Source: Acutalibacteraceae bacterium (GTDB lineage: Bacteria > Bacillota > Clostridia > Oscillospirales > Acutalibacteraceae). From it: a DNA stretch of 64,000 bases. The notes under the pieces were generated by a model. The model was not told the origin of the DNA and made no database searches. It was given only the letters and a program-made list of their open reading frames with translations. Every line of letters begins with the position of its first letter. The stretch's first letter is position 1. The DNA lies in assembly GCA_045599305.1 (NCBI GenBank), contig JAZRVU010000103.1, positions 173 through 64,172 on the forward strand, given 5' to 3'. The position numbers and the translations under genes are program-made. This document shows positions 9,796 to 54,188 of this stretch, piece by piece.

Positions 9796-10774
9796 AAGAA
9801 TAGCCGCTCTGCTTCTGGCGGCGGCGATGGCGTTTGCGGCCGTCGGGTGCGCCGGCAAAAGCGAGCCGCAGCCGGAGAAGCAGAAGACGGCGCTTTCGGT
9901 CGCCGGGATCGCCGGCCCCACCGGCATCGGTCTGGCGGGGCTGATAGCCGGGGACTATCGCTCCGACGATATCGACTACACCTTCACCGTGGCCACCTCA
10001 CCGGACGAGGTGGTGGGCAAATTCACCAGCGGTGAGGTGCAGATCGCCTCTGTCCCCACCAATCTGGCCGCCAAACTGTATAAAAAACTGAACGGCGAGG
10101 TGCAGATGCTGGCGATCAACACCGCGGGCGTGCTGTATATTCTGGAAAACGGCGACACCGTGCATACGATGGCCGACCTGCGCGGGCGCACCATCCTCTC
10201 CACCGGCGAGGGTGCCAATCCCGAATATGTGCTGCGGTATCTGCTGCGGCAGAACGGGCTGGACCCCGACCGGGACGTGACACTGGAATTCGTGGCGGAG
10301 AACAGCGAACTCATCACCAAACTCGCGACCGGCGCGGTCTCGGTCGCCATGGTGCCGGAGCCGGCCGTGACCACCGTGCTGGGCAAAAACGCCGATCTGC
10401 GCGTGGCACTGAGCATGGATGACGAGTGGAACGCCGTCTGTCCCGACAGCGGCATGCTGATGGGCTGTATCATCGCGAAAAAGAGTTTCATCGCCCAAAG
10501 CAAGGCGGCCGTCGACGCATTTTTGAAAGAGTACGCGGTGTCGGTCAAAATGGCCGAAAGTGACCCCGACACCGTGGCCGCGCTCTGCGAGGAACACGGC
10601 ATCACCGCCTCCGCCGCCGTGGCCAGGGCGGCCATTCCCCGCTGCAACCTCGTGTGTATCACGGGCGGCGAAATGAAAGACCGCATCGCGGGATATTATC
10701 ACATTCTGTATGAGGCCGACCCCACCGCCGTGGGCGGTGCCGTGCCGGCCGACGATTTCTACTATGAAGGATGA
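9779..10774 (+). CDS. ABC transporter substrate-binding lipoprotein (NMT1/THI5 - TauA/SsuA-like)
   Basis: Lipobox AAVGC after a signal peptide. Periplasmic-binding-protein type 2 pattern (GPTGIGLAGLI...) and genomic coupling to a NitT/TauT-type permease and ATPase. Confidence 0.8.
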   Translation: MMKHIKRIAALLLAAAMAFAAVGCAGKSEPQPEKQKTALSVAGIAGPTGIGLAGLIAGDYRSDDIDYTFTVATSPDEVVGKFTSGEVQIASVPTNLAAKLYKKLNGEVQMLAINTAGVLYILENGDTVHTMADLRGRTILSTGEGANPEYVLRYLLRQNGLDPDRDVTLEFVAENSELITKLATGAVSVAMVPEPAVTTVLGKNADLRVALSMDDEWNAVCPDSGMLMGCIIAKKSFIAQSKAAVDAFLKEYAVSVKMAESDPDTVAALCEEHGITASAAVARAAIPRCNLVCITGGEMKDRIAGYYHILYEADPTAVGGAVPADDFYYEG

Positions 10775-11546
10775 TCACAACACTTTGAAAAAATGGCTTT
10801 GGGCGGCGGGGGCCGCGCTGTTCTGGCTGGCAGCGTGGACTGCCGCGGCGCTGGCGGCGGGGCAGGAATTGCTGATCCCCACGCCGTGGCTCGTCGCGGC
10901 CACCCTGTGGAAGGACTGCCGCACCGCCGTCTTCTGGCAGGCGGCGGGCGCTTCATTATGCCGCATTCTCGCCGGCTTTGCCGCGGGAACGCTGCTCGGC
11001 AGTCTGCTCGCCATGCTGACGGCACGCTTTTCGGCGGCCGCGCAGTTGAGCCGGCCGATCCTGCACATCATCCGCGCCACGCCGGTGGCCTCCTTCATCA
11101 TTCTGGCGTTCGTGTGGCTGCGCACCGATGTGCTGCCCGCCTTCATCGCCTTTCTGATGGTGCTGCCGGTGGTGTGGGGCAACGTGGACAAGGGCGTGCG
11201 GCAGACCGACCCGCAGCTGATCGAAATGGCACGGGTATTCCGGCTGGGGCGGTGGCACACTTTTTGGCAGATCCGCGTCCCGTCGGTGATGCCCTATTTG
11301 CTCTCAGGGGCGACCACCGCGCTGGGGCTCGCATGGAAAGCGGGCATTGCGGCGGAGGTCATCTGCCGTCCCGCCTATTCCATCGGACGGCTGCTGCAGA
11401 CGGCCAAAAACCATCTGGAGACGGCCGAGGTATTTGCGCTGACGGCGGCAGTGATCCTGTTCAGCATCCTGCTCGAGCGGCTGCTGCTTTGGCTGGCCGG
11501 GCGGCTGCTGCACCGCTATAACGTCGGACAGGAGGTGGCGCCATGA
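10764..11546 (+). CDS. ABC transporter permease (NitT/TauT family)
   Basis: Six hydrophobic segments and an EAA-like loop (LIEMARVFRLGRWHTFWQIRVPSVMPYL). Start moved to ATG 10764, overlapping the SBP stop. Confidence 0.85.
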   Translation: MKDDHNTLKKWLWAAGAALFWLAAWTAAALAAGQELLIPTPWLVAATLWKDCRTAVFWQAAGASLCRILAGFAAGTLLGSLLAMLTARFSAAAQLSRPILHIIRATPVASFIILAFVWLRTDVLPAFIAFLMVLPVVWGNVDKGVRQTDPQLIEMARVFRLGRWHTFWQIRVPSVMPYLLSGATTALGLAWKAGIAAEVICRPAYSIGRLLQTAKNHLETAEVFALTAAVILFSILLERLLLWLAGRLLHRYNVGQEVAP

Positions 11547-44027: not shown

Positions 44028-45434
44028 ATGCTCGATTACAAAGTGAAAATCGGTCTTGTTGCCATGCGCCGCAATGCCACCGATCGGCCGAAGGGCACTT
44101 TTCTGACTTGGTATTCCGCCGAACAGCGCGGAAAGAGATTCACCGAATACATAGAAAAGAATTTTACAAACGAAAATGTGACCTTTGTGGATAATAAAGG
44201 GATCGGCATTGCCGACCTGGTGTTTGACGATGCCACCGCCAAAGAGACGGTCGCCCGCTTCAAAGCCGAGGAGGTCGACGCGGTCTTCATCATCAACTGC
44301 AACTTCGGGAACGAGGAAGCCGCCGCCGACATTGCGAAAGCGCTCGGCAAGCCCGTCCTGCTGTGGGCGCCGCTCGACGATGAATATTATGTAGACGGTA
44401 TGCGTCCGACCGATTCGCAATGCGGCCTGTTCGGGGTGTCCCGCCAGATGCAGCGGTTCCATATCCCGTTTTCCCACCTGCCCTGCTGCCGTGTGGAAAG
44501 CGAAGAATTCAAATCGGGCTTCGATTCCTTCGTCCGTGTGGCCTGCATGGTCAAAAACTTTACGGGGATGCGCATCGGTCAGGTAGGTCTTCGCCCCGGC
44601 CCCTTCTTCTCGGTCATTTGGAACGAGGGCGAGCTGATGGAAAAATTCGGCGTCAAGATCATCCCGATCAACTTTGCCATGATCGAACAGCGCATGAACG
44701 CCGTTCTGGAGGAAAACCCCGCCGAAAAGCAGGAGATCGCCGATTACATTTTAGCCAACTACAAATTGGATGACCTGACCCCGCAATATGTGGACCGCAT
44801 GGCGGCGCTGACCGTGATGTATAAGCGGCTGTTTGCGGAATTCGATCTGGATGTCATTTCGGCGGAATGCTGGACGGCAACGCCGATCATGTTCAACGGT
44901 CTCGCGCCCTGCACGGTTTACGGGCTGCTCAACGACATGGGATATCTCGTGTCCTGCGAAAGCGATATGCATTGCGTCATGACCATGGCTCTGCTCAAAT
45001 GCGCCACGCTCGGCAAGGGCAAGCCGCTGTTCGGTGAATTCACCGTCCGTCACCCCGAAAACCGCAACGCCGAGCTGCTGTGGCACTGCGGGCCGTTCCC
45101 GCTTTCGCAGAAGGCGGCGAGCGGCACCGACAGCACGGCACGGCTCGTCAACCAGCGCTCGTGGTTCCGTGCCAAGGACGGCACCTACACCGTGGCCCGC
45201 ATGGATCAGGAAAGCGGCAACTATATGATCCTGCCGCTCATCTGCCGCACCACCGAAGGGCCGCAGACTCACGGCACCTATATCTGGGGTGAATTCGAAG
45301 ACCTGCAGGCGGTCGAAGACCGTTTGCTGGACGGCCCGTACATCCACCATTTCGTCGAGATGGAGGGCGACTGGCGAAAAGAGATCGCCGAATTCTGCAA
45401 ATACTTCCCCAACCTCAAAGTTGATAAAATGTAA
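44028..45434 (+). CDS. L-fucose/L-arabinose isomerase family protein (FucI-like)
   Basis: KIGLVAMRR...AEEVDAVFIINCNFGNEEAAADIAKALGKPVLLWA...SQCGLFG...ECW...SCESD...: architecture and length typical of the FucI/AraA-like superfamily. Confidence 0.8.
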   Translation: MLDYKVKIGLVAMRRNATDRPKGTFLTWYSAEQRGKRFTEYIEKNFTNENVTFVDNKGIGIADLVFDDATAKETVARFKAEEVDAVFIINCNFGNEEAAADIAKALGKPVLLWAPLDDEYYVDGMRPTDSQCGLFGVSRQMQRFHIPFSHLPCCRVESEEFKSGFDSFVRVACMVKNFTGMRIGQVGLRPGPFFSVIWNEGELMEKFGVKIIPINFAMIEQRMNAVLEENPAEKQEIADYILANYKLDDLTPQYVDRMAALTVMYKRLFAEFDLDVISAECWTATPIMFNGLAPCTVYGLLNDMGYLVSCESDMHCVMTMALLKCATLGKGKPLFGEFTVRHPENRNAELLWHCGPFPLSQKAASGTDSTARLVNQRSWFRAKDGTYTVARMDQESGNYMILPLICRTTEGPQTHGTYIWGEFEDLQAVEDRLLDGPYIHHFVEMEGDWRKEIAEFCKYFPNLKVDKM

Positions 45435-45449
45435 AAAGGAGAAAACACC

Positions 45450-46886
45450 ATGCAATACCAGATGAATGAATTCCTGTTTTCCATGATCCTCACCGAACTG
45501 GAAGATGCCGTCGGCAAGGACCACTGCTCGACCCGTGCCATCGACAAGGTGACGCACAGTGTCGACTATTACTGGCTGTCCCGTATGTGGGCAGACCGCG
45601 GCTGCCGGATGCCCGAGGCGGACTTTATCGTCTGCCCCGAAAATGCGCAGGAGGTCTCCAAGGTCCTCAAGATCGCCAACTATTACAAGATCCCCGTGAC
45701 CACCTGGGGCGCCGGCGGCGGTACACAGGGCGGTGCCATCCCGGTCTGCGGCGGCATCATCCTCGATACCAAGCGCATGAACAAGATCTATGAGGTCAAC
45801 ACCGACAGCATGTATATCGAATGCGGCACCGGTGCGATCTACAAGCATATCGAATGGGCGGCGAACGAGGTCGGCAAAGCGACCATGCACTATCCCTCTT
45901 CCCTGACCTGCTCGACTGTCGGCGGATTTTTGGCACACCGCGGTATCGGTGTCTGCTCGACTAAGTATGGCAAGATCGACGACATGGTGCTGCAGATGGA
46001 GGTCGTTCTGCCCAACGGCGATATCATCAACACGTCCTCCGCGCCGAAGCACGCCGCCGGCCCCGATCTGAACCAGATCTTCATCGGTTCCGAGGGCACT
46101 CTGGGCATCATCACCAAAGCGCAGATCCGCATCTTCGACCAGCCCGAAGAACGCCGCTTCCGCGGGTTCCTGTTCCAGGATATGACCGGCGCATTCAAGG
46201 CCTCCCGCGAACTGCTGCAGAAATTCAAGCCGTCTGTCATGCGGCTTTACGATGAAGCCGAAACCGCTTCGCTGATCAAAAAGATCGTCGGCGTCGAGCG
46301 CAAAGGCGCGTTCATGAACGTGGCTTACGAGGGTGTCAGGGAAATGGTCGAGGTCGAGGAGAAGATCCTGCTCGACACCTTCAAAAAGTACGGCGCCGAA
46401 GACCTCGGCGACGAGTACGGCAAAAAGTGGTGGGACGAGAAGATCACCTTCTTCTATCCGGGCCACATGATGGATATCCCGCAGATGTTCGGCACCATGG
46501 ACACCATCGCCCCCTACGACAAGATCGAGGAGATCTACTGGGCGATGAAGGAAGCCATCGAGACCAATTTCCCGCAGGCAAAATTCATTGCGCACTTCTC
46601 GCATTGGTATGAGTGGGGCGCCATGGTGTACGACCGCTTTATCGTGGAGGGCAAGGATGTGCCCGAAGACCCGGTGGAGGCACTGCGCCTGCATCAGGAG
46701 ATCTGGACCTGCGGTGTCCGCACCGCATTGGCACACGGCGGCGTGGTCAACGACCACCACGGTGTCGGCATCAAGCTCGGCCGCCTGATGAAGGAGCAGT
46801 ACGGCCCGGCCATGCAGGTCTTTGAGGGATTGAAGAAGCAGTTAGACCCGAACGGCATCATGAACCCCTTCAAACTCGGCCTTTAA
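45450..46886 (+). CDS. FAD-linked oxidase (GlcD / AGPS-like, FAD_binding_4 family)
   Basis: VCPENAQEVSKVLKIANYYKIPVTTWGAGGGTQGGAIPVCGGIILDTKRMNKI is the PCMH-type FAD-binding block; C-terminal GGVVNDHHGVG. Confidence 0.85.
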   Translation: MQYQMNEFLFSMILTELEDAVGKDHCSTRAIDKVTHSVDYYWLSRMWADRGCRMPEADFIVCPENAQEVSKVLKIANYYKIPVTTWGAGGGTQGGAIPVCGGIILDTKRMNKIYEVNTDSMYIECGTGAIYKHIEWAANEVGKATMHYPSSLTCSTVGGFLAHRGIGVCSTKYGKIDDMVLQMEVVLPNGDIINTSSAPKHAAGPDLNQIFIGSEGTLGIITKAQIRIFDQPEERRFRGFLFQDMTGAFKASRELLQKFKPSVMRLYDEAETASLIKKIVGVERKGAFMNVAYEGVREMVEVEEKILLDTFKKYGAEDLGDEYGKKWWDEKITFFYPGHMMDIPQMFGTMDTIAPYDKIEEIYWAMKEAIETNFPQAKFIAHFSHWYEWGAMVYDRFIVEGKDVPEDPVEALRLHQEIWTCGVRTALAHGGVVNDHHGVGIKLGRLMKEQYGPAMQVFEGLKKQLDPNGIMNPFKLGL

Positions 46887-46908
46887 TATTTTCGGGAGGT
46901 ATGCTATA

Positions 46909-47997
46909 ATGATTATGTCGGAAAAATCCAAGCAGCATGTCGATTCCTGCCGCTTTTGCTGGATGTGCCACCATATCTGTCCGATCGGCAATGCCACCGG
47001 CCAGGAGAGAAACACCGCCAGAGCCAGAGCGCTCGGCATTTCGCTCGTCAACCGCGAAGCCATCGAGCTGGACGAGATCATGGATAACATCTATGAATGT
47101 GCGACCTGCGGCGGCTGTGTAGAGATCTGCAACACCGGCTGGGATCCGGTCATGTTCACCAAGGAGACCCGTCTGCAGGCGGCGCTGGAGGGGAAACTTC
47201 CCGAATACATCCGGAATATGGTGGGCAACTGCCTTGAAACGGGCAATGCCTACGGCAAGACCGAACTGTGCGGCGACCTTTCTGCCGCCATCAAGGCACA
47301 TCAGGCCAAGACCGACACCCTGCTGGTACTGGGCGCGGATGCGCGGTTCATGCAGTGCCGGCAGGGGCTGAAAGCCATCGCCGTGCTGGAAAAAGCGGGC
47401 GTACCGTTCACCGTTCTGGCCGACGAACCGGCGACCGGCGCACAACTGGACTTTTTGATCGGTGCCGCCAACGAGACCAAGGAGCAGATGAGCCGGGCGG
47501 CCGATGTTTTCGGCGGCTACAAGACAGTCGTCCTCTATGACCCCGACGACGCGAAAGCCGTCAAACAGACCTACCGGGAATACGGCGTGGAACTGAACAC
47601 CTCCGCCGTGACCTATACCTCTTTCTTGGCTTCGCTTATCAAGAGCGGCGCCCTGAAAGCCGAAAACTCCGGTAAGAAGGTCGTTTTCCAGGATCCCTAT
47701 CAATTGGCGCGCGATCTGGAAGAGACCGAAGACGCCCGCGAGATCATCAAGGCATTCGCCGAACTGAACGAAATGCTGCTCAACCGCAGAGAGACCGTTT
47801 GGGCGGGCAATATCCTGATGGCGCAGTATCTCCCCTCCGTCATCCTGAAGGTCGCCGAACGCCGCATCTTCAATGCGGCCAGCATCGGTGCCGACACCAT
47901 CGTCACCGCCGGCATTTCGGAATATGCGGCGCTCAAAAACGTTGACCAGTCCGCCGTCCGGATCCTCTCTCTCGAAGACCTGATCCTCGGCGAATAA
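46909..47997 (+). CDS. (Fe-S)-binding protein, GlcF/GlpC-like, partner of the FAD-linked oxidase
   Basis: Two ferredoxin-type motifs, CRFCWMCHHICP and CATCGGCVEIC, followed by a CCG-like C-terminal half. Confidence 0.8.
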   Translation: MIMSEKSKQHVDSCRFCWMCHHICPIGNATGQERNTARARALGISLVNREAIELDEIMDNIYECATCGGCVEICNTGWDPVMFTKETRLQAALEGKLPEYIRNMVGNCLETGNAYGKTELCGDLSAAIKAHQAKTDTLLVLGADARFMQCRQGLKAIAVLEKAGVPFTVLADEPATGAQLDFLIGAANETKEQMSRAADVFGGYKTVVLYDPDDAKAVKQTYREYGVELNTSAVTYTSFLASLIKSGALKAENSGKKVVFQDPYQLARDLEETEDAREIIKAFAELNEMLLNRRETVWAGNILMAQYLPSVILKVAERRIFNAASIGADTIVTAGISEYAALKNVDQSAVRILSLEDLILGE

Positions 47998-48008
47998 AGG
48001 AGAACACC

Positions 48009-48848
48009 ATGTTAGTCAATTTGCAGTATGTGTTGGATCTGGCGGAAAAAGGCAATTTCTGCATTCCCGCATTCAATGTTTACAACATGGAGACCGCCAT
48101 GGGCGTCGTCAAGGCGGCGGAAGAAATGCACGCCCCCATCATCATGCAGGTCTATCCGCGCCTGATGAAGGAGGAAGCGGGATATTTCCTGGCGCCCGTT
48201 GTCAAGGCGGCGGCCCAAAAGGCCGGCGTGCCGATCTGTTTCCATCTGGATCACGGGCCGTCGGAATTGGAGACCACCCGTTCACTGCGCTGGGGCGCGA
48301 CCGGTATCATGCTCGACGGGTCGACCCTGCCGTTTGAAGAAAACATCGCCCTCACCAAGCGGGTCGTCGATACCTGCAGCTATGTCGGCGTCGGCGTCGA
48401 GGGCGAGCTCGGCCACGTCGGCACGACCAAGGACGATGAGATGGACGAATTCACCACCCCCGCCGATGCCAAACGGTTCGTCGAAGAGACCGGCGTGGCC
48501 TGCCTTGCCGTTGCGGTCGGTACCGCACACGGCAGATACAAAAAGCCGCCGAAGCTCGATATCGAACGCATCGAAGCCATCCGCAAGGCCACGAACAATA
48601 CCGCCCTCGTTCTGCACGGCGGCTCGGGCGTTCCGGATGAGGAGATCCGTCGGGCAGTCAAGGCGGGCATCCGCAAGATGAATTTTGCCACCGACATCTG
48701 CTATGCGTTCCTCGACTGCTGTCTGGAAGAACTGCAAAAGCCCGATCGGGCCATCGCGGTGGACAACTTCATGAAGAAGCCGATCGAAGCGGTCAAAAAC
48801 TTCTGCATCACAAGGATCTCCCTTGTCGGTGCCGACGGAAAGGCGTAA
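48009..48848 (+). CDS. Class II ketose-bisphosphate aldolase (FbaA/GatY/KbaY/IolJ family)
   Basis: IPAFNVYNMET...APIIMQV...HLDHG...GVEGELG...HGGSG...KMNFATD. Confidence 0.85.
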   Translation: MLVNLQYVLDLAEKGNFCIPAFNVYNMETAMGVVKAAEEMHAPIIMQVYPRLMKEEAGYFLAPVVKAAAQKAGVPICFHLDHGPSELETTRSLRWGATGIMLDGSTLPFEENIALTKRVVDTCSYVGVGVEGELGHVGTTKDDEMDEFTTPADAKRFVEETGVACLAVAVGTAHGRYKKPPKLDIERIEAIRKATNNTALVLHGGSGVPDEEIRRAVKAGIRKMNFATDICYAFLDCCLEELQKPDRAIAVDNFMKKPIEAVKNFCITRISLVGADGKA

Positions 48849-48852
48849 AGTT

Positions 48853-49764
48853 ATGAACGAGATCGTAGGCATCGGCGCGTGCGTGATGGATACGCTCATC
48901 ACCGTTCCGCATTATCCTGCCGAGGACACCAAACTGCGTGCGACCGGCAGCAAGCCCGCCGGAGGCGGCCCCGTGGCAACGGGGCTCGTTGCCGCAAGCA
49001 AGCTGGGATGCGCGGCCGGCTATATCGGGGTACTGTCGGAGGACGCCGGCGGAAAATTTCTGATCGAAGATTTCAAAAAGTACGGTGTTTCGACCGAAAA
49101 CGTCACGACCGTTTCGGGCAGGCGCTCGTTCACCTCGGTGATCTGGCTGAGCGCCGAAACGACCAGCCGCACCTGTGTGTTCGACAAGGGCGATCTGCCG
49201 CCGCTCACCCTCACCGAAGCCCAGAAAGAGGCGATCGCAAACGCGAGACTCTTGATGATCGACGGCAACGAAATGGATGCCGCCGAGGAGGCGTGCCAAA
49301 TCGCCCGCCAGTCGGGCACCAAGGTGCTTTACGATGCCGGCGGACTGTATGCCGGGGTGGAACGGCTGCTTCCCCTTGCCGACTTCCTGATCCCCTCCAA
49401 AGAGTTCGCGCTCGGCCACACCGGCTGCCGCACGGTGGAAAAGGCCGCCGAAAAGCTTTACCGGACGTATTCCCCCGAAGCGGTAGTGATCACCTGCGGG
49501 AAAGACGGCGGCGTGCTGTACGACGGGAAAGAACTGTACCGCTATCCGATCTATCCCGCCGAAGTGGTGGATTCCAACGGCTCGGGCGATGTGTTCCACG
49601 GCGCGTTTGCCGCAGGCTTCATCAAAGGCTTCGACACCAGAAAGTGCTGCCATTTTTCGAGCGCCGTTTCGGGGCTCAAATGCACGGGCATCGGTGCACG
49701 AGAAAGCGTCCCCGCATTTGATACGGTCAAAAAATATATGAAGGAGAATGGTTATGAACTTTAA
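48853..49764 (+). CDS. PfkB family sugar (phosphate) kinase
   Basis: N-terminal IVGIGACVMD, GGGPVATG, and C-terminal DSNGSGDVFHGAF anion-hole motif. Start moved to ATG 48853. Confidence 0.85.
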   Translation: MNEIVGIGACVMDTLITVPHYPAEDTKLRATGSKPAGGGPVATGLVAASKLGCAAGYIGVLSEDAGGKFLIEDFKKYGVSTENVTTVSGRRSFTSVIWLSAETTSRTCVFDKGDLPPLTLTEAQKEAIANARLLMIDGNEMDAAEEACQIARQSGTKVLYDAGGLYAGVERLLPLADFLIPSKEFALGHTGCRTVEKAAEKLYRTYSPEAVVITCGKDGGVLYDGKELYRYPIYPAEVVDSNGSGDVFHGAFAAGFIKGFDTRKCCHFSSAVSGLKCTGIGARESVPAFDTVKKYMKENGYEL

Positions 49765-50548
49765 AAAGGCATACGTTCCCGCCAAAGGGTACACGCCGAT
49801 CTGCAAGATCGGTGAATGCTCCTTGAAGAAACTGGAATTCGGTATCATCGAATTGGATGCCGGCGAAACGCAGGATTTTTACACCGAAGACAAAGAGGTG
49901 GCCTTTATCCTGCTGGAAGGCCACTGTGACGTTGCTTTTGACGGACAAAAGTGGAAAGACATCGGTAACCGTCAAACGGTTTTCGAGAATCGCAAAGCGG
50001 AATGCTTCTATATGCCGCGTGAGCAGGAACTGCTGATCATCGCCCGCGACCATCTCAAGATCGCGGTCTGCGGCACGCCGGTCGCGGAAAAGACCGAGCC
50101 GCAGGTGCTGCGTGAAGATCATGCCGTACTGAAATTGCTGGGCGAGCCGCCGTATCAGCGCGAAACGAGTTTTCTTGTCGACGGAAATTCCAACGCCAAG
50201 GTGCTCACTATCGGCGAGGCCTACTGCACCGAGGGCAACTGGGCGGGCTTCCCGCCGCACAAGCACGACGAGGACAACATGCCCAAGGAGTGCATTGCCG
50301 AAGAGATCTACTATTTCCTGTTCGAGCCCAAGCAGGGCTTCGGTGTTCAGTGCCTTTACACCTCGGACGGCACGGTGGATGAAGCCTACCGCGTCAAAAA
50401 CGATGAATTGGTGGAATTTCCGTACGGATATCACACCACCGTATCGACCCCCGGCTATCAGACCTATTTCCTGTGGCTGATGGCGGGTGATTATCAGGGC
50501 TTCAACCGCAGCAGTGACCCCGAACATGAATGGATAGAAAAACGGTGA
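49754..50548 (+). CDS. KduI/IolB family cupin isomerase, IolB-like (5-deoxy-glucuronate isomerase-type)
   Basis: GNWAGFPPHKHDEDNMPKECIAEEIYYF resembles the IolB metal/cupin block; ~264 aa. Confidence 0.7.
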   Translation: MNFKKAYVPAKGYTPICKIGECSLKKLEFGIIELDAGETQDFYTEDKEVAFILLEGHCDVAFDGQKWKDIGNRQTVFENRKAECFYMPREQELLIIARDHLKIAVCGTPVAEKTEPQVLREDHAVLKLLGEPPYQRETSFLVDGNSNAKVLTIGEAYCTEGNWAGFPPHKHDEDNMPKECIAEEIYYFLFEPKQGFGVQCLYTSDGTVDEAYRVKNDELVEFPYGYHTTVSTPGYQTYFLWLMAGDYQGFNRSSDPEHEWIEKR

Positions 50549-50552
50549 TCCT

Positions 50553-50597
50553 GCGGGGGGGAGATATGCCGCCCGCATATCTCCCCCGCATTTTTTA
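50553..50597 (+). terminator. Intrinsic terminator-like hairpin inside the locus
   Basis: GCGGGGG(GG)AGATATGC-cgccc-GCATATCTCCCCCGC followed by ATTTTTTAC, between the IolB-like and DUF4867-like genes. Confidence 0.6.
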
Positions 50598-50617
50598 CAT
50601 AAAGGAAGGAAAGAACG

Positions 50618-51271
50618 ATGACATTTCAGGAATTGAAAGAGAAAAATCCGCAGATCGCACTCTACCCTGTCGACAGCGAAGAATTCCGGTCTTTCGGCCG
50701 GGTCCTGCAGGGCTTTGACGCGGCGGAAATTTTAAAGACGGCCAAAACCATTCCGGCTCCCGACAGCGGTTCGGTCTATGTCGCACGGGAGCCGCGCTTT
50801 GAAGACCTCGCCATCGCCAAGGAGATCACCGACCGCTGCTTCGGCGAACTGCCGACCCAGATCGGCTACTGCTGGGGACACAACAGCTTTTTGAACGCCA
50901 CCGAATGGCACACGTCGAGCGAGATCAACATTGCCATCACCCCGCTCGTGCTGGTTTTGGGGCATCGTTGGGACATCCGGGACGGGTGGATCGACGCCGC
51001 CGATTTCAAGGCGTTTTACCTGCCCGCGGGCACCGTGGCGGAGGTGTATGCCACCTCGCTGCATTTCTGCCCCTGTGAGGTGGAGCCGAGTGGGTTCGGC
51101 TGTGTGGTCGCGCTCCCCGAAGGCACCAACACGCCCCTTTCCGGCGAAGCGGCAGACAAACTGCTGTTCTGCAAGAACAAGTGGCTTCTGGCGCACTGCG
51201 AAAACACGGGTCTGATCGCGCGCGGCGCCGTTGCGGGCATCCGCGGTGTCAATTACCGAATCAACTATTGA
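50618..51271 (+). CDS. DUF4867-like protein (ureidoglycolate-lyase/cupin-like fold suspected)
   Basis: ~217 aa; the N-terminus ...LKEKNPQIALYPVDSEEFRSFGRVL matches my recollection of DUF4867 proteins found in sugar operons. Recognition from memory only. Confidence 0.5.
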   Translation: MTFQELKEKNPQIALYPVDSEEFRSFGRVLQGFDAAEILKTAKTIPAPDSGSVYVAREPRFEDLAIAKEITDRCFGELPTQIGYCWGHNSFLNATEWHTSSEINIAITPLVLVLGHRWDIRDGWIDAADFKAFYLPAGTVAEVYATSLHFCPCEVEPSGFGCVVALPEGTNTPLSGEAADKLLFCKNKWLLAHCENTGLIARGAVAGIRGVNYRINY

Positions 51272-51281
51272 GGGTACTGCT

Positions 51282-52751
51282 ATGAAATATCTGCTCGGCA
51301 TCGACTTCGGCGGCGGTTCTTCCAAAGCCACCCTTCTGAACACCGAAGGAAACATCGCTGCGGAAAGCACGGTGGAATATCCGACCCTGCATCCGACCTC
51401 GGACGGCTGCGAACAGTCCCCAGAAGACTGGATCGCGGCTCTGTGCCGGAACTGCCGCACCCTGCTCAAAGACTCCGGCATTTCTGCCGGGGATATTCTG
51501 GCAGTCGCCGTGGATTCGGCGACCCATACGAGTCTGGTGTGCGACGAAAACTTCAGGCCGCTGCGCCGTGCCATCCACTGGACCGATTCCCGCTCCCGCA
51601 CGCAGGCGAACCGTTTGCTCAGCGCCGCGGGCGAGCAGATCTTTCAAAAGACATTTCACAAACCCGACACCATCTGGACTTTGCCGCAGCTTTTATGGCT
51701 CAAAGAAAACGAGCCGGAGGTTTTCGAAAAGATCCGGTACCTCTTTTTTGAAAAGGATTTCATTCGCTTTTTCCTGACCGGCGTTTTCTGCACCGATTAT
51801 ATCGAAGCCGAGGGCTCCATGCTCTTCGACTGCAACAAGATGGCGTGGGATACCGAACTGTGCGTACTTTGCGGCATCCGTCCCGACTGCCTGCCGCCGC
51901 TCAAGGCACCGACCGATATCATCGGCAGGGTCACGAAAGCCGCGGCAAAAGAAACGGGGCTCGAAGAGGGCACCCCCGTTATCTGCGGCACGACCGACAC
52001 CGTCATGGAGGTCTTTGCCTCGGGTGCCGTGCAGCCGCAGGACGTCACGGTCAAGCTGGCCACGGCCGGACGGATCTGTGTCATCACCGACCGCCCCTAC
52101 CCTAACCGTCATCTGGTCAACTATTCCCACATCGCGCCGGGACTCTGGTACCCCGGCACCGCCACCAAAGCGGCGGCATCGAGTTACCGCTGGTTCCGCG
52201 ACACCTTCGGCGGGACTTACCGGGAGCTGGACGACCTGACAAAGGATATCCCCATCGGCTGCGAGGGGCTCATCTACCACCCGTATCTCAACGGCGAACT
52301 GACCCCCTATGCCGATCCGATGCTTTGCGGCAGCTTCACCGGCATCCGTTCGACCCACACCAAAGGACATTTTGCCAAGGCCGTTATGGAGGGCGTGAGC
52401 CTCTCCCTTCTGGACAGCAAGATCCTGCTTGACAGCATCGGTATCCCCTATCAGCCGCAGGCGACCCTCATCGGCGGCGGCTCCAAGGGCAGAAAATGGG
52501 CACAGATCACGGCAGATATGCTGGATATGGCCCTGCAGATCACCGAAAACGCCGATTCCTCATTCGGCTCATGCATGCTGGCGGGCATTGCCGTCGGCGT
52601 TTTTGCCGATGCGAAGGATGCCGTCGCGAAATGTGTCAAACCGTTGGACACCATCCGCCCCGTTTCCCGGAACACCGAGGCATATCACAAGATCTTCGGT
52701 GAATACAAAAAGATACACGATGCTTTGGCACCGATTTATGATGCAAGATGA
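51282..52751 (+). CDS. FGGY family carbohydrate kinase (xylulokinase-like)
   Basis: MKYLLGIDFGGGSSKATLL, ...HWTDSR..., C-terminal GGGSKG. Start moved to ATG 51282. Confidence 0.85.
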   Translation: MKYLLGIDFGGGSSKATLLNTEGNIAAESTVEYPTLHPTSDGCEQSPEDWIAALCRNCRTLLKDSGISAGDILAVAVDSATHTSLVCDENFRPLRRAIHWTDSRSRTQANRLLSAAGEQIFQKTFHKPDTIWTLPQLLWLKENEPEVFEKIRYLFFEKDFIRFFLTGVFCTDYIEAEGSMLFDCNKMAWDTELCVLCGIRPDCLPPLKAPTDIIGRVTKAAAKETGLEEGTPVICGTTDTVMEVFASGAVQPQDVTVKLATAGRICVITDRPYPNRHLVNYSHIAPGLWYPGTATKAAASSYRWFRDTFGGTYRELDDLTKDIPIGCEGLIYHPYLNGELTPYADPMLCGSFTGIRSTHTKGHFAKAVMEGVSLSLLDSKILLDSIGIPYQPQATLIGGGSKGRKWAQITADMLDMALQITENADSSFGSCMLAGIAVGVFADAKDAVAKCVKPLDTIRPVSRNTEAYHKIFGEYKKIHDALAPIYDAR

Positions 52752-54133
52752 AAATAACCGTATGTATTCGGCAGGGACAAGACGGTGAGATCAATCCGTT
52801 TGACGCCTGTGCCTATGAAGAAGCCCTGAAAATCCATAATGCGGAGATCACCCTTTTAAGCATGGGTGTCCCCGCGACCAAAGATTTTTTGCTGAAGCTG
52901 ACCCGTCTGGGTGCCGCAAACGCCGTTTTGCTGACCGATCCCGCCTTTGCGGGAGCCGACACACTGGCGACCGCGTATACGCTTTCGCTGGCGATCAGAC
53001 GGCTTGAGCCGGATCTGGTCTTTTGCGGGCGGCAAACGCTGATCGGCGATACGGCACAGACCGCACCGATGCTGGCGGAAATGATCGGCTATCACCTCAT
53101 CACCAATGCCATGTCGGTCACCTGCGCGCAGGAGCGCATCTGCTGCGAGACCCGCGATGAGGGAACGGTCTGCGCCGATTTTCCCGCACTGGTCACCGTG
53201 GAGCGCATCAACACGCTGCGTCTGCCGTCCATTTTCTCCAGGATCGGGACGGTCGAGACCCTGACGGCAGCCGATCTCGGCGCCGATCTGTCCCGATGCG
53301 GCCTCGCCGGCTCCCCGACAAGGGTGCTTGAAAGCCGGGAAAACCAGTCCGGCAAACGGAAATGCACCTTTATCGAACTGCACGAGTTGCCCGGGATCAT
53401 TCGGCAAAGCGCCGCCCGGGCGGCAACGCGCTCCGATTTCGTTTCGGGCAGCAGCGCCAAACTGAAGCGGGTCTTCACGGTCGGCACCGCGCCGCTCGGA
53501 TTTGCCCAAACGGTCAGCGATGATATCACGGTGATCGAGCCGACCTCAAAAGAGGAGATCGCCGCCGTCATCCGCCAAGAGAGACCGAACGCGGTTTTGT
53601 GGGGCAGTGACAGCAAAAGCAAACGCACGGCCGCACAGGTCGCCGCCATGCTCGGGCTGGGGCTGTGTGCCGACTGCACCTCCCTTGAAACCGACGGCGA
53701 CACTCTTTTCATGGTGCGCCCTGCCCTTTCGGGCAGCGTGATCGCCAAGATCAAAAGTCTGACCCGCCCCGCCATGGCGACGGTGCGCACCACGCAGAAC
53801 GGATTCAAGGACATCACGGTTTGTGTCGGGTACGGCGCAAAAGAGTATGTAAATCAGGTGACCGCCTTTGCCGAAAAACTCGGTGCCGATCTGGCAGCGA
53901 CCCGCAAAGCGGTAGACTGCGATCTGATACCCTACGCCTGCCAGGTCGGGCTGACGGGAAAGACCGTTGCCCCGCCCGTCTATATCGCGGTCGGCGTTTC
54001 GGGGGCAGTCCATCACCTGGTCGGTATGCAGAGAGCCGGCACGGTGATCGCCGTGAACAGCGACAAAAACGCGCCGATCTTCGACTATGCCGATTTCGGA
54101 CTTGTTTTGTCCGATTTGAGTAAACTTCTCTGA
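52748..54133 (+). CDS. Fused, shortened electron transfer flavoprotein (EtfB-like N-terminal half + EtfA-like C-terminal half)
   Basis: Residues 1-~200: MKITVCIRQ...INPFDACAYEEAL...FAGADTLATAYTL...CGRQTLIGDTAQTAPMLAE...GSPTRV (EtfB). Residues ~245-461: ...AAQVAAMLGLGLCADCTSLE...RPALSGSVIA...ATVR... and VYIAVGVSGAVHHLVGMQRAGTVIAVNSDKNAPIFDYADFGLV (EtfA FAD domain). ATGA overlap with the kinase stop. Confidence 0.8.
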   Translation: MKITVCIRQGQDGEINPFDACAYEEALKIHNAEITLLSMGVPATKDFLLKLTRLGAANAVLLTDPAFAGADTLATAYTLSLAIRRLEPDLVFCGRQTLIGDTAQTAPMLAEMIGYHLITNAMSVTCAQERICCETRDEGTVCADFPALVTVERINTLRLPSIFSRIGTVETLTAADLGADLSRCGLAGSPTRVLESRENQSGKRKCTFIELHELPGIIRQSAARAATRSDFVSGSSAKLKRVFTVGTAPLGFAQTVSDDITVIEPTSKEEIAAVIRQERPNAVLWGSDSKSKRTAAQVAAMLGLGLCADCTSLETDGDTLFMVRPALSGSVIAKIKSLTRPAMATVRTTQNGFKDITVCVGYGAKEYVNQVTAFAEKLGADLAATRKAVDCDLIPYACQVGLTGKTVAPPVYIAVGVSGAVHHLVGMQRAGTVIAVNSDKNAPIFDYADFGLVLSDLSKLL

Positions 54134-54137
54134 CAGG

Positions 54138-54188
54138 AAAACGGGTCAAAAGCAGGGTTCCCCCTGCTTTTGACCCGTTTGCGTTTTT
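54138..54188. terminator. Bidirectional terminator closing the locus
   Basis: 19-bp stem AAACGGGTCAAAAGCAGGG / CCCTGCTTTTGACCCGTTT followed by GCGTTTTTAT. Confidence 0.8.

Follow-up and report, generated by a model that had tools for sequence, protein, structure and literature searches.

A compact single-chain electron-transfer flavoprotein encoded in a sugar operon of an Acutalibacteraceae bacterium and conserved among gut and rumen Clostridia

Electron-transfer flavoproteins (ETFs) are textbook heterodimers, and the bifurcating ETFs constitute the simplest all-flavin model of electron bifurcation. A locus of an Acutalibacteraceae bacterium (assembly GCA_045599305.1, contig JAZRVU010000103.1, positions 173 to 64,172) raises the question of whether the alpha and beta subunits can be united in one polypeptide of only 461 residues, and of what such a protein would do in the cell. 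The whole stretch of DNA analysed, 64,000 nucleotides in length, is referred to here as the window. An initial annotation, made from the nucleotide letters, had proposed a miniaturised EtfB–EtfA fusion at 52748–54133, and had itself raised the worry that a sequencing error might have created the fusion. The explanation favoured here, to which we assign a probability of roughly 0.6, is that the gene encodes a functional and minimal ETF of a single chain with two flavin adenine dinucleotides (FADs), derived from bifurcating-type ETFs, fused in the order EtfB then EtfA, trimmed to about 460 residues and serving an AGPS-like dehydrogenase encoded in the same operon. The fusion itself, about 130 residues shorter than the heterodimer, is genuine and conserved.

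The open reading frame comprises 461 codons with no internal stop and, as had been claimed from motifs, carries EtfB features in its N-terminal half and EtfA features in the rest. Both families are recovered by profile searches: Pfam places PF01012 (ETF), the EtfB-type nucleotide-binding domain III, at residues 4–176 and in a second stretch (E = 2.7e-50), and PF00766 (ETF_alpha), the C-terminal FAD-binding domain II of EtfA, at residues 355–428 (E = 4e-24), and NCBIfam models of EtfB type (residues 5–198) and EtfA type (355–459) match in the same order, all of them far under their equivalog cut-offs. In phmmer searches against the PDB, residues 5–207 align with EtfB chains (LctB 25–242, E = 3.5e-28), residues 262–348 with the second half of EtfA domain I (5ol2_A 73–161) and residues 359–460 with EtfA domain II (5ol2_A 216–316), and the top matches are bifurcating ETFs throughout, namely Bcd–EtfAB, CarCDE, Ldh–EtfAB, FixABCX-type ETFs and the ETF of Acidaminococcus fermentans. 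These domain matches are far beyond chance. The C-terminal block quoted in the initial annotation, VSGAVHHLVGM...VAVNSDKNAPIF, is present, its spelling there (VAINSDKNAPIF) being off by one letter, and the reported overlap of the ATG start codon with the TGA of the FGGY kinase gene, in the form ATGA, is seen at 52748–52751 (gcaagATGAaaata).

A single insertion or deletion could in general join adjacent etfB and etfA genes, so that an error of assembly or sequencing, or the merging of the two in a decaying pseudogene, has to be weighed before any functional reading. The orthologues speak against it. A scan of loci with one genome per species returned 79 loci, 46 of them with a complete gene of the compact type, and in all 46, which come from independent assemblies of metagenome-assembled genomes (MAGs), one open frame extends over the whole match. 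Homologues of 450–470 residues number in the thousands. Moreover, conservation extends across the EtfB arm and the junction, the AlphaFold2 model as a whole has high confidence, and the compact family forms a fully supported clade (see below). A sequencing-derived fusion is rejected on the orthologue evidence, the probability left for any artefact being negligible, and the gene is almost certainly a real fused ETF and not a heterodimer of separate subunits.

The layout of the protein (Table 1) was obtained from the DSSP assignment of the AlphaFold2 model together with alignments to split ETFs of related genomes and to longer fused ETFs. The model, computed with a 39-sequence alignment, reaches a mean predicted local distance difference test score (pLDDT) of 92.2 and a predicted template modelling score (pTM) of 0.87; its Foldseek matches are exclusively ETF chains, with TM-scores (normalised by target length) of 0.71–0.73 against the EtfB chains 4kpu_B, 7qh2_B and 5ol2_B. 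The fold is thus predicted with high confidence. Four segments are missing in comparison with conventional and long fused ETFs. About 20 residues of the "EtfB protrusion", as defined by Demmer et al. 2017 (PMC5691135), are gone between residues 9 and 10 (CIRQ/GQDGEINPFD; alignment pattern CIKQ[...]G..NP.D), directly after the first strand, and this is the segment before INPFD whose absence had been noticed earlier. Some 45 residues are gone at the N-terminal side of EtfA domain I, much of which had rightly been described as missing, and the second half of this domain alone aligns. The largest functional deletion, which the initial annotation did not mention, removes about 43 residues of the linker joining domain I to domain II, and the C-terminal helix is shorter by about 10 residues. 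EtfB's C-terminal arm had also been listed as missing; it is present, modelled with pLDDT of about 89–93, and aligns with the arm of split EtfBs. The tether that follows varies in sequence, and nowhere else in the model is the pLDDT as low (67–71). In human ETF, the counterpart of the deleted protrusion region carries betaTyr16, which packs on the electron-transferring flavin. A metal or iron–sulfur (Fe–S) site was also considered, as eight cysteines are invariant among close homologues, and the idea was dropped; among 39 diverse members, C133 occurs in 20 and C184 in 27.

Table 1. Position of the compact ETF gene, its segments and motifs, and associated features in the window (aa, residues of the ETF; AF2, AlphaFold2; ET, electron-transferring).
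Feature	Position	Strand	Basis
Compact single-chain ETF, whole open reading frame (461 aa, P0001)	52748..54133	+	translation, Pfam, ATGA overlap
EtfB-type domain III, aa 1–198	52748..53341	+	alignment to LctB, 4kpu_B, 5ol2_B; split and long fused ETFs; AF2
aa 65–76, PAFAGADTLATA: PxFxG remnant of the RxFxG NAD motif, and GADTxAT with T72/T75	52940..52975	+	
Bifurcating-FAD recognition "zipper" IGDTAQTAP, aa 99–107	53042..53068	+	PMC9232219, PMC8958531
SPT anchor of the EtfB arm, GSPTRV, aa 188–193	53309..53326	+	conservation; PMC9232219
Retained EtfB arm, aa 199–225: beta-bridge 207–208, helix 211–225	53342..53422	+	AF2, alignment
Fusion tether from EtfB arm to EtfA domain I, aa 226–240 (15 aa)	53423..53467	+	
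Trimmed EtfA domain I, aa 241–346: GLCADCT, EtfA hairpin, invariant R324	53468..53785	+	
Domain I–II linker, 9 residues, aa 347–355 (about 50 residues in conventional EtfA)	53786..53812	+	
EtfA domain II (ET-FAD domain), aa 356–461: R386, T403, H423	53813..54130	+	
Intrinsic-terminator-like hairpin, 19-bp stem and T run, ends the operon	54139..54180	+	
AGPS/GlcD-like FAD enzyme, 478 aa, inferred partner	45450..46886	+	FAD_binding_4, FAD-oxidase_C
2x[4Fe-4S] protein (Fer4), 362 aa, inferred partner	46909..47997	+	
FGGY (XylB-like) kinase gene, with translational coupling to the ETF gene	51282..52751	+	

The residues that hold flavins in bifurcating ETFs were followed over 96 family representatives with less than 80% identity to each other. 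In the GADTxAT motif (GADTLAT here) the Asp is conserved in 100% of the sequences, T72 in 96% and T75 in 100%; by count on the alignment with 4kpu_B, and assuming that the numbering of Rhodopseudomonas palustris and A. fermentans coincides, these threonines equal T94 and T97 of the R. palustris protein, whose mutation turns this ETF into an AMP-containing protein with one FAD (PMC8958531). The two EtfB threonines needed for FAD rather than AMP are thus in place. The zipper of bifurcating ETFs reads DGDTAQ (in full DGDTAQVGP), as opposed to DDDxNQ in canonical ETFs (PMC8958531), and its mutation removes the b-FAD from Ldh–EtfAB (PMC9232219); in the compact family, GDTAQ is kept at G 98%, D 94%, T 100%, A 79% or G 20%, and Q 100%, and the canonical signature DDDxNQ is absent from the 96 representatives. 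The SPT anchor is nearly invariant (S 99%, P 97%, T 100%). R324, conserved in 100%, aligns with R136 of 5ol2_A (Clostridioides difficile EtfA), equal to Afe R146 and Aw R205, that is, the EtfA arginine that is hydrogen-bonded to N5 of the bifurcating (Bf) flavin. In domain II, the flavin-contact trio R386, T403 and H423 is found in 99, 97 and 100% of the sequences, with the spacing of the classical contacts of the electron-transferring (ET) flavin in the human protein, alphaR249, T266 and H286; a Gln to His change at position 422, in GISGA(V)HH, is specific to the family. Since the bifurcating-type signatures are conserved, the compact ETF probably binds two FADs, and the binding of a nicotinamide nucleotide is likely to be kept, possibly in a modified form.

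Proteins of this type form a family of their own. A homologue search in a large protein collection gave 4729 matches, and the best 120 of them have 455–468 residues, 62–96% identity and both Pfam domains, some carrying just the name "FAD-binding protein"; one, 96% identical, comes from another assembly. In an exhaustive search reduced to representatives at 50% identity, about 35 full-length clusters show the compact architecture (450–501 residues, one alignment stretch over residues 1–454), next to over 100 clusters in which the fused ETFs are longer (540–710 residues). The 46 complete loci belong to MAGs of Acutalibacteraceae, Oscillospiraceae, Ruminococcaceae, Lachnospiraceae, Faecousia and other Clostridia, with one MAG of Planctomycetia. 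All carriers in the scan of one genome per species were MAGs, those of Faecalimonas and Acetatifactor among them. A literature search yielded no publication dealing with a compact fused ETF or its operon; the family is widespread in gut and rumen Clostridia and undescribed.

A maximum-likelihood tree was computed from 103 ETFs, which comprised compact, mid-length fused and long fused proteins as well as concatenated split pairs. The 28 rows of the core compact family group in a single clade, with a Shimodaira–Hasegawa-like approximate likelihood ratio test (SH-aLRT) value of 100. Its sister (SH-aLRT 98) unites fused proteins of 541–577 residues and a single split pair, which belongs to a genome (G016) from the family of the window's own genome; long fused ETFs of 580–650 residues, Thermoplasmata sequences among them, come next, and ordinary split ETFs lie on the opposite side of the tree. 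A single origin of all short fused ETFs was rejected: P0192, P0224 and P0248 fall outside the core compact clade, and shortening has thus taken place more than once. The G016 pair keeps the protrusion and the linker and has a domain I that is already shortened, which suggests a stepwise reduction within a lineage tied to the AGPS-like type of dehydrogenase; nested as it is among fused ETFs, the pair may represent a secondary fission or a surviving form from before the fusion. The gene is patchily distributed, being found in none of eight genomes of the same genus and in one other genome of the family (G013, 54% identity), a pattern that fits an accessory, horizontally mobile operon.

In the window, the ETF gene is the last in a run of genes of one direction, divergent from an AraC regulator gene, that encodes, in this order, an SftI/FucI-like isomerase, the AGPS/GlcD-like FAD enzyme, the Fe–S protein, a class II ketose-bisphosphate aldolase, a PfkB kinase, IolB (scoring over the TIGR04378 cut-off), a DUF4867 protein, the FGGY kinase and the ETF. 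Among the 36 compact-ETF loci with at least 8.6 kb of upstream sequence, the genes of the AGPS-like enzyme and the Fe–S protein are both present in 33, two of the three remaining loci running off the flank, and FGGY, PfkB and IolB are present in 35. In the family, too, the ETF gene nearly always closes this conserved operon. A GlcD-superfamily FAD dehydrogenase is therefore encoded with the ETF as a rule. The initial annotation had spoken of a GlcD/GlcF-type dehydrogenase at this locus: an FAD enzyme and a Fer4 protein do stand in the same gene string, and neither is a true member of the type named. The best solved relatives of the flavoenzyme are alkyl-dihydroxyacetone phosphate (alkyl-DHAP) synthases (E = 3e-41), with D-lactate dehydrogenases and LctD behind them (E = 1e-28), and with 194 bits against a cut-off of 568 for the glcD equivalog its identity as GlcD was rejected. 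The Fe–S protein has eight invariant cysteines in two CxxCxxCxxxC motifs, and its C-terminal region of about 280 residues shares homology with TfrB and LdhH, which are CCG-domain proteins. All CCG-domain cysteines are lost from it, so that the cluster sites of CCG type appear to be gone, and identity as a true GlcF was rejected; since this region has no conserved cysteine, the protein is read from its sequence as a two-cluster relay and not as a catalytic subunit of the GlcF/HdrD type.

Conservation of the flavoenzyme far exceeds that of the other operon proteins (median amino acid identity of 93% over 34 loci and across families, compared with 58–80%), and in the Planctomycetia MAG it is 83% identical, the other operon proteins there being 39–56% identical; this points to unusual constraint or to recent spread. 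With regard to the substrate, IolB, PfkB and the class II aldolase (within 44028–52751) resemble IolB/C/J of the lower inositol pathway, and the same operon holds two putative aldose–ketose isomerases (SftI-like and DUF4867) and the XylB-like kinase. The SftI-like match is weak (92 bits against a 700-bit cut-off), no IolG/E/D genes occur in the operon (44028–52751), and no described pathway that fits it was found in the literature search. The operon also contains, between its IolB and DUF4867 genes, a strong terminator-like hairpin with a 13-bp stem and a T run (50557–50587). In one orthologous locus (L013/L014, 11456–15099), the ETF gene is followed by genes for a PFL-like glycyl-radical enzyme of 661 residues and a radical-SAM activase.

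The genome from which the window comes (1.98 Mb, 97% complete) contains one ETF_alpha gene and one FAD-oxidase_C gene, and thus its only ETF and its only possible GlcD-type partner share one operon. The ETF is very probably the dedicated partner of the AGPS-like/Fe–S pair. No acyl-CoA dehydrogenase was found in the own-genome search, in which FixC and ETF-QO were not searched for, and genes for PFOR, Rnf and an [FeFe]-hydrogenase are present, so that a ferredoxin metabolism exists. In a genome of the same order (L005, G037:C14, 172–3240), an acyl-CoA dehydrogenase–EtfB fusion of 686 residues (Acyl-CoA_dh N, M and C plus ETF) is encoded, with a separate EtfA gene directly after it.

On the basis of the signatures described above, the ET-FAD of the compact ETF would be held in domain II and the Bf-type FAD at the interface of domains III and I, in contact with R324, T72/T75 and G100–Q104, and a nicotinamide nucleotide would react next to the SPT anchor. 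The genomic context suggests that the AGPS-like enzyme would oxidise a sugar-derived intermediate, probably phosphorylated, and give single electrons to the ET-FAD of a mobile domain II, which would pass them to the Bf-FAD for the reduction of NAD+. If the couple that is oxidised were too positive for NAD+, as is lactate/pyruvate in Ldh–EtfAB, reduced ferredoxin would have to act as a co-donor. In this case, the Fe–S protein might stand in for the absent N-terminal ferredoxin domain of EtfA of the LctC/CarE type and link ferredoxin to the Bf-FAD, a link that the loss of the EtfB protrusion may help by exposing this flavin, because in Ldh–EtfAB external ferredoxin is kept away from the b-FAD by the protrusion (PMC9232219). 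In such a scheme the ensemble would operate by confurcation like Ldh–EtfAB, or in reverse as a bifurcating reductase. Ferredoxin-coupled confurcation or bifurcation by the compact ETF is considered conceivable, at somewhat less than even odds, and it is rather unlikely that the ETF, the AGPS-like flavoenzyme and the Fe–S protein with its cysteine-free CCG domain constitute a new flavin-based confurcating or bifurcating complex of sugar catabolism. If it were true, an ETF of about 50 kDa that bifurcates with neither EtfB protrusion nor long linker would be the minimal natural bifurcating ETF, and these elements would be dispensable or the gating would be different, for example through a restricted swing on a hinge of nine residues.

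Several observations weigh against the favoured explanation or parts of it. The first Asp of DGDTAQ, which is 100% conserved in bifurcating and canonical ETFs alike (PMC8958531), is Ile in the protein studied here and Asp in 44% of the family. The Arg of RxFxG is replaced by Pro here and by various residues in the family (K 41%, P 18%, R 10%, S 9%), the other positions of the motif being kept (F 86%, G 99%), and NAD(H) may thus be bound in a changed way or not at all. The EtfB protrusion and the domain I–II linker, which are implicated in guiding and gating the swing of domain II by about 80 degrees (PMC5691135), are both gone, so that bifurcation may lack the conformational gating it needs. 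The orthologue at locus L064 stands alone with no operon around it: at 9920–11359, with 50% identity, it lies between primase/sigma-70 genes and a gene for a leucine-rich-repeat protein, and no operon gene occurs within 10 kb. Moreover, ETFs with two FADs that do not bifurcate exist, and the flavin stoichiometry and the nucleotide use of the compact ETF are predicted from motifs.

Two other readings of the function were weighed. The protein could be a two-FAD ETF that does not bifurcate and serves as an NAD(H)-linked electron wire to the AGPS-like flavoenzyme with no part for ferredoxin, the Fe–S protein relaying electrons between the FAD of the dehydrogenase and the ET-FAD as FixX does in FixABCX. 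The loss of the very elements that are thought to gate bifurcation (PMC5691135) would fit such a wire, close non-bifurcating relatives of bifurcating ETFs are on record (PMC9232219, PMC12630350), and the best NCBIfam match, far under its cut-off, is the ETF subunit of the non-bifurcating acryloyl-CoA reductase of Clostridium propionicum. However, the residues of the Bf site are as well conserved as in true bifurcating ETFs, and an anaerobe with no quinones or acyl-CoA dehydrogenase would gain little from a route through flavins and an ETF unless the couple were too positive for the direct reduction of NAD+, in which case ferredoxin would be thermodynamically needed as a co-donor. This reading is held to be rather unlikely. 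Still less probable is a carrier of canonical style with one FAD, in which the second site would hold AMP or be structural and electrons would be shuttled from the AGPS-like enzyme to the Fe–S protein and on to ferredoxin or hydrogenase. It could draw on the loss of the first zipper Asp and of the RxFxG Arg, and on the strong trimming, which suggests lost functions; it has to contend with the absence of DDDxNQ and the retention of Bf-type GDTAQ and of GADTxAT with both threonines, whose mutation turns a bifurcating ETF into the AMP form (PMC8958531), and with the potentials of ET-FADs, which at about 0 to −130 mV are far too positive to reduce ferredoxin (PMC8958531).

The compact ETF amounts to a natural deletion experiment, in which the elements that current models credit with steering and gating the swing of domain II, the protrusion and the linker, are removed and nearly every residue known to hold two flavins is kept, and it would be well suited to testing models of bifurcation and domain swing. 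The first fused ETF of full length was characterised in 2025 and promoted as a robust one-chain module for devices (PMC12042025), and the compact family is about 130 residues smaller. Furthermore, the family marks an orphan sugar operon with no assigned substrate that is widespread in gut and rumen Clostridia.

Among known systems, a distant analogue is the uncharacterised ygc cluster of Escherichia coli K-12 (ygcN-O-P-Q-R-S-U-W, yqcE, ygcE), in which an AGPS-like FAD dehydrogenase and an FGGY kinase likewise occur together with an ETF, the pair YgcR/YgcQ. YgcU and the flavoenzyme share 30% identity over their full length (E = 5e-58), and YgcE matches the FGGY kinase (E = 2e-29). However, the ETF of E. 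coli is split and weakly similar (E = 4e-8 and 2e-15), YgcR has neither GDTAQ nor GADTxAT, and FixCX-like YgcN/O take the place of the GlcF-like Fe–S protein. A closer counterpart is the split-ETF form of the same operon type in the G016 genome (contig C32, locus L094, 5267–9519, minus strand), with an AGPS-like enzyme of 58% identity, an Fe–S protein of 36%, IolB of 78% and an FGGY kinase of 51%; it differs from the locus studied here in that EtfB (258 residues) and EtfA (304 residues) are encoded by separate, overlapping genes.

The arrangement also recalls, as had been remarked at the outset, Ldh–EtfAB (LctBCD) of Acetobacterium woodii, an electron-confurcating lactate dehydrogenase (PMC9232219; PDB 7qh2). 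In both systems a FAD dehydrogenase of the GlcD superfamily is encoded with a bifurcating-type ETF, the SPT and Arg–N5 motifs and, with Ile here in place of the first Asp, the DGDTAQ-type motif are common to both, as is an Fe–S relay, and the best matches of the compact ETF in sequence and structure include LctB and LctC. Nevertheless, LctB and LctC are separate subunits that possess the protrusion and the long linker absent from the compact ETF, the [4Fe–4S] ferredoxin domain is N-terminal on LctC whereas the clusters are here on a separate protein, and the dehydrogenase is here nearer to AGPS than to LctD.

The nearest precedent for the fusion itself is SaETF of Sulfolobus acidocaldarius, a monomeric fused ETF of bifurcating type that was purified with two FADs in 2025 (PMC12042025). 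Like it, the compact ETF is a single chain with EtfB preceding EtfA, keeps the flavin-site residues of the bifurcating type and has an extra tether that gives three connections from domain II to the base. Unlike it, the compact ETF has four deletions, whereas SaETF is of full size, with three complete domains and two FADs shown. The survey made with SaETF covers fused homologues of 592–656 residues only (PMC12042025), so that the compact family, a separate clade, lies outside it; moreover, the genes of those homologues neighbour acyl-CoA dehydrogenases, FixCX or ETF-QO, and that of the compact ETF neighbours the AGPS-like and Fe–S genes. Thus, the fusion of EtfB and EtfA is already known from SaETF, and it is the compact family that is new.

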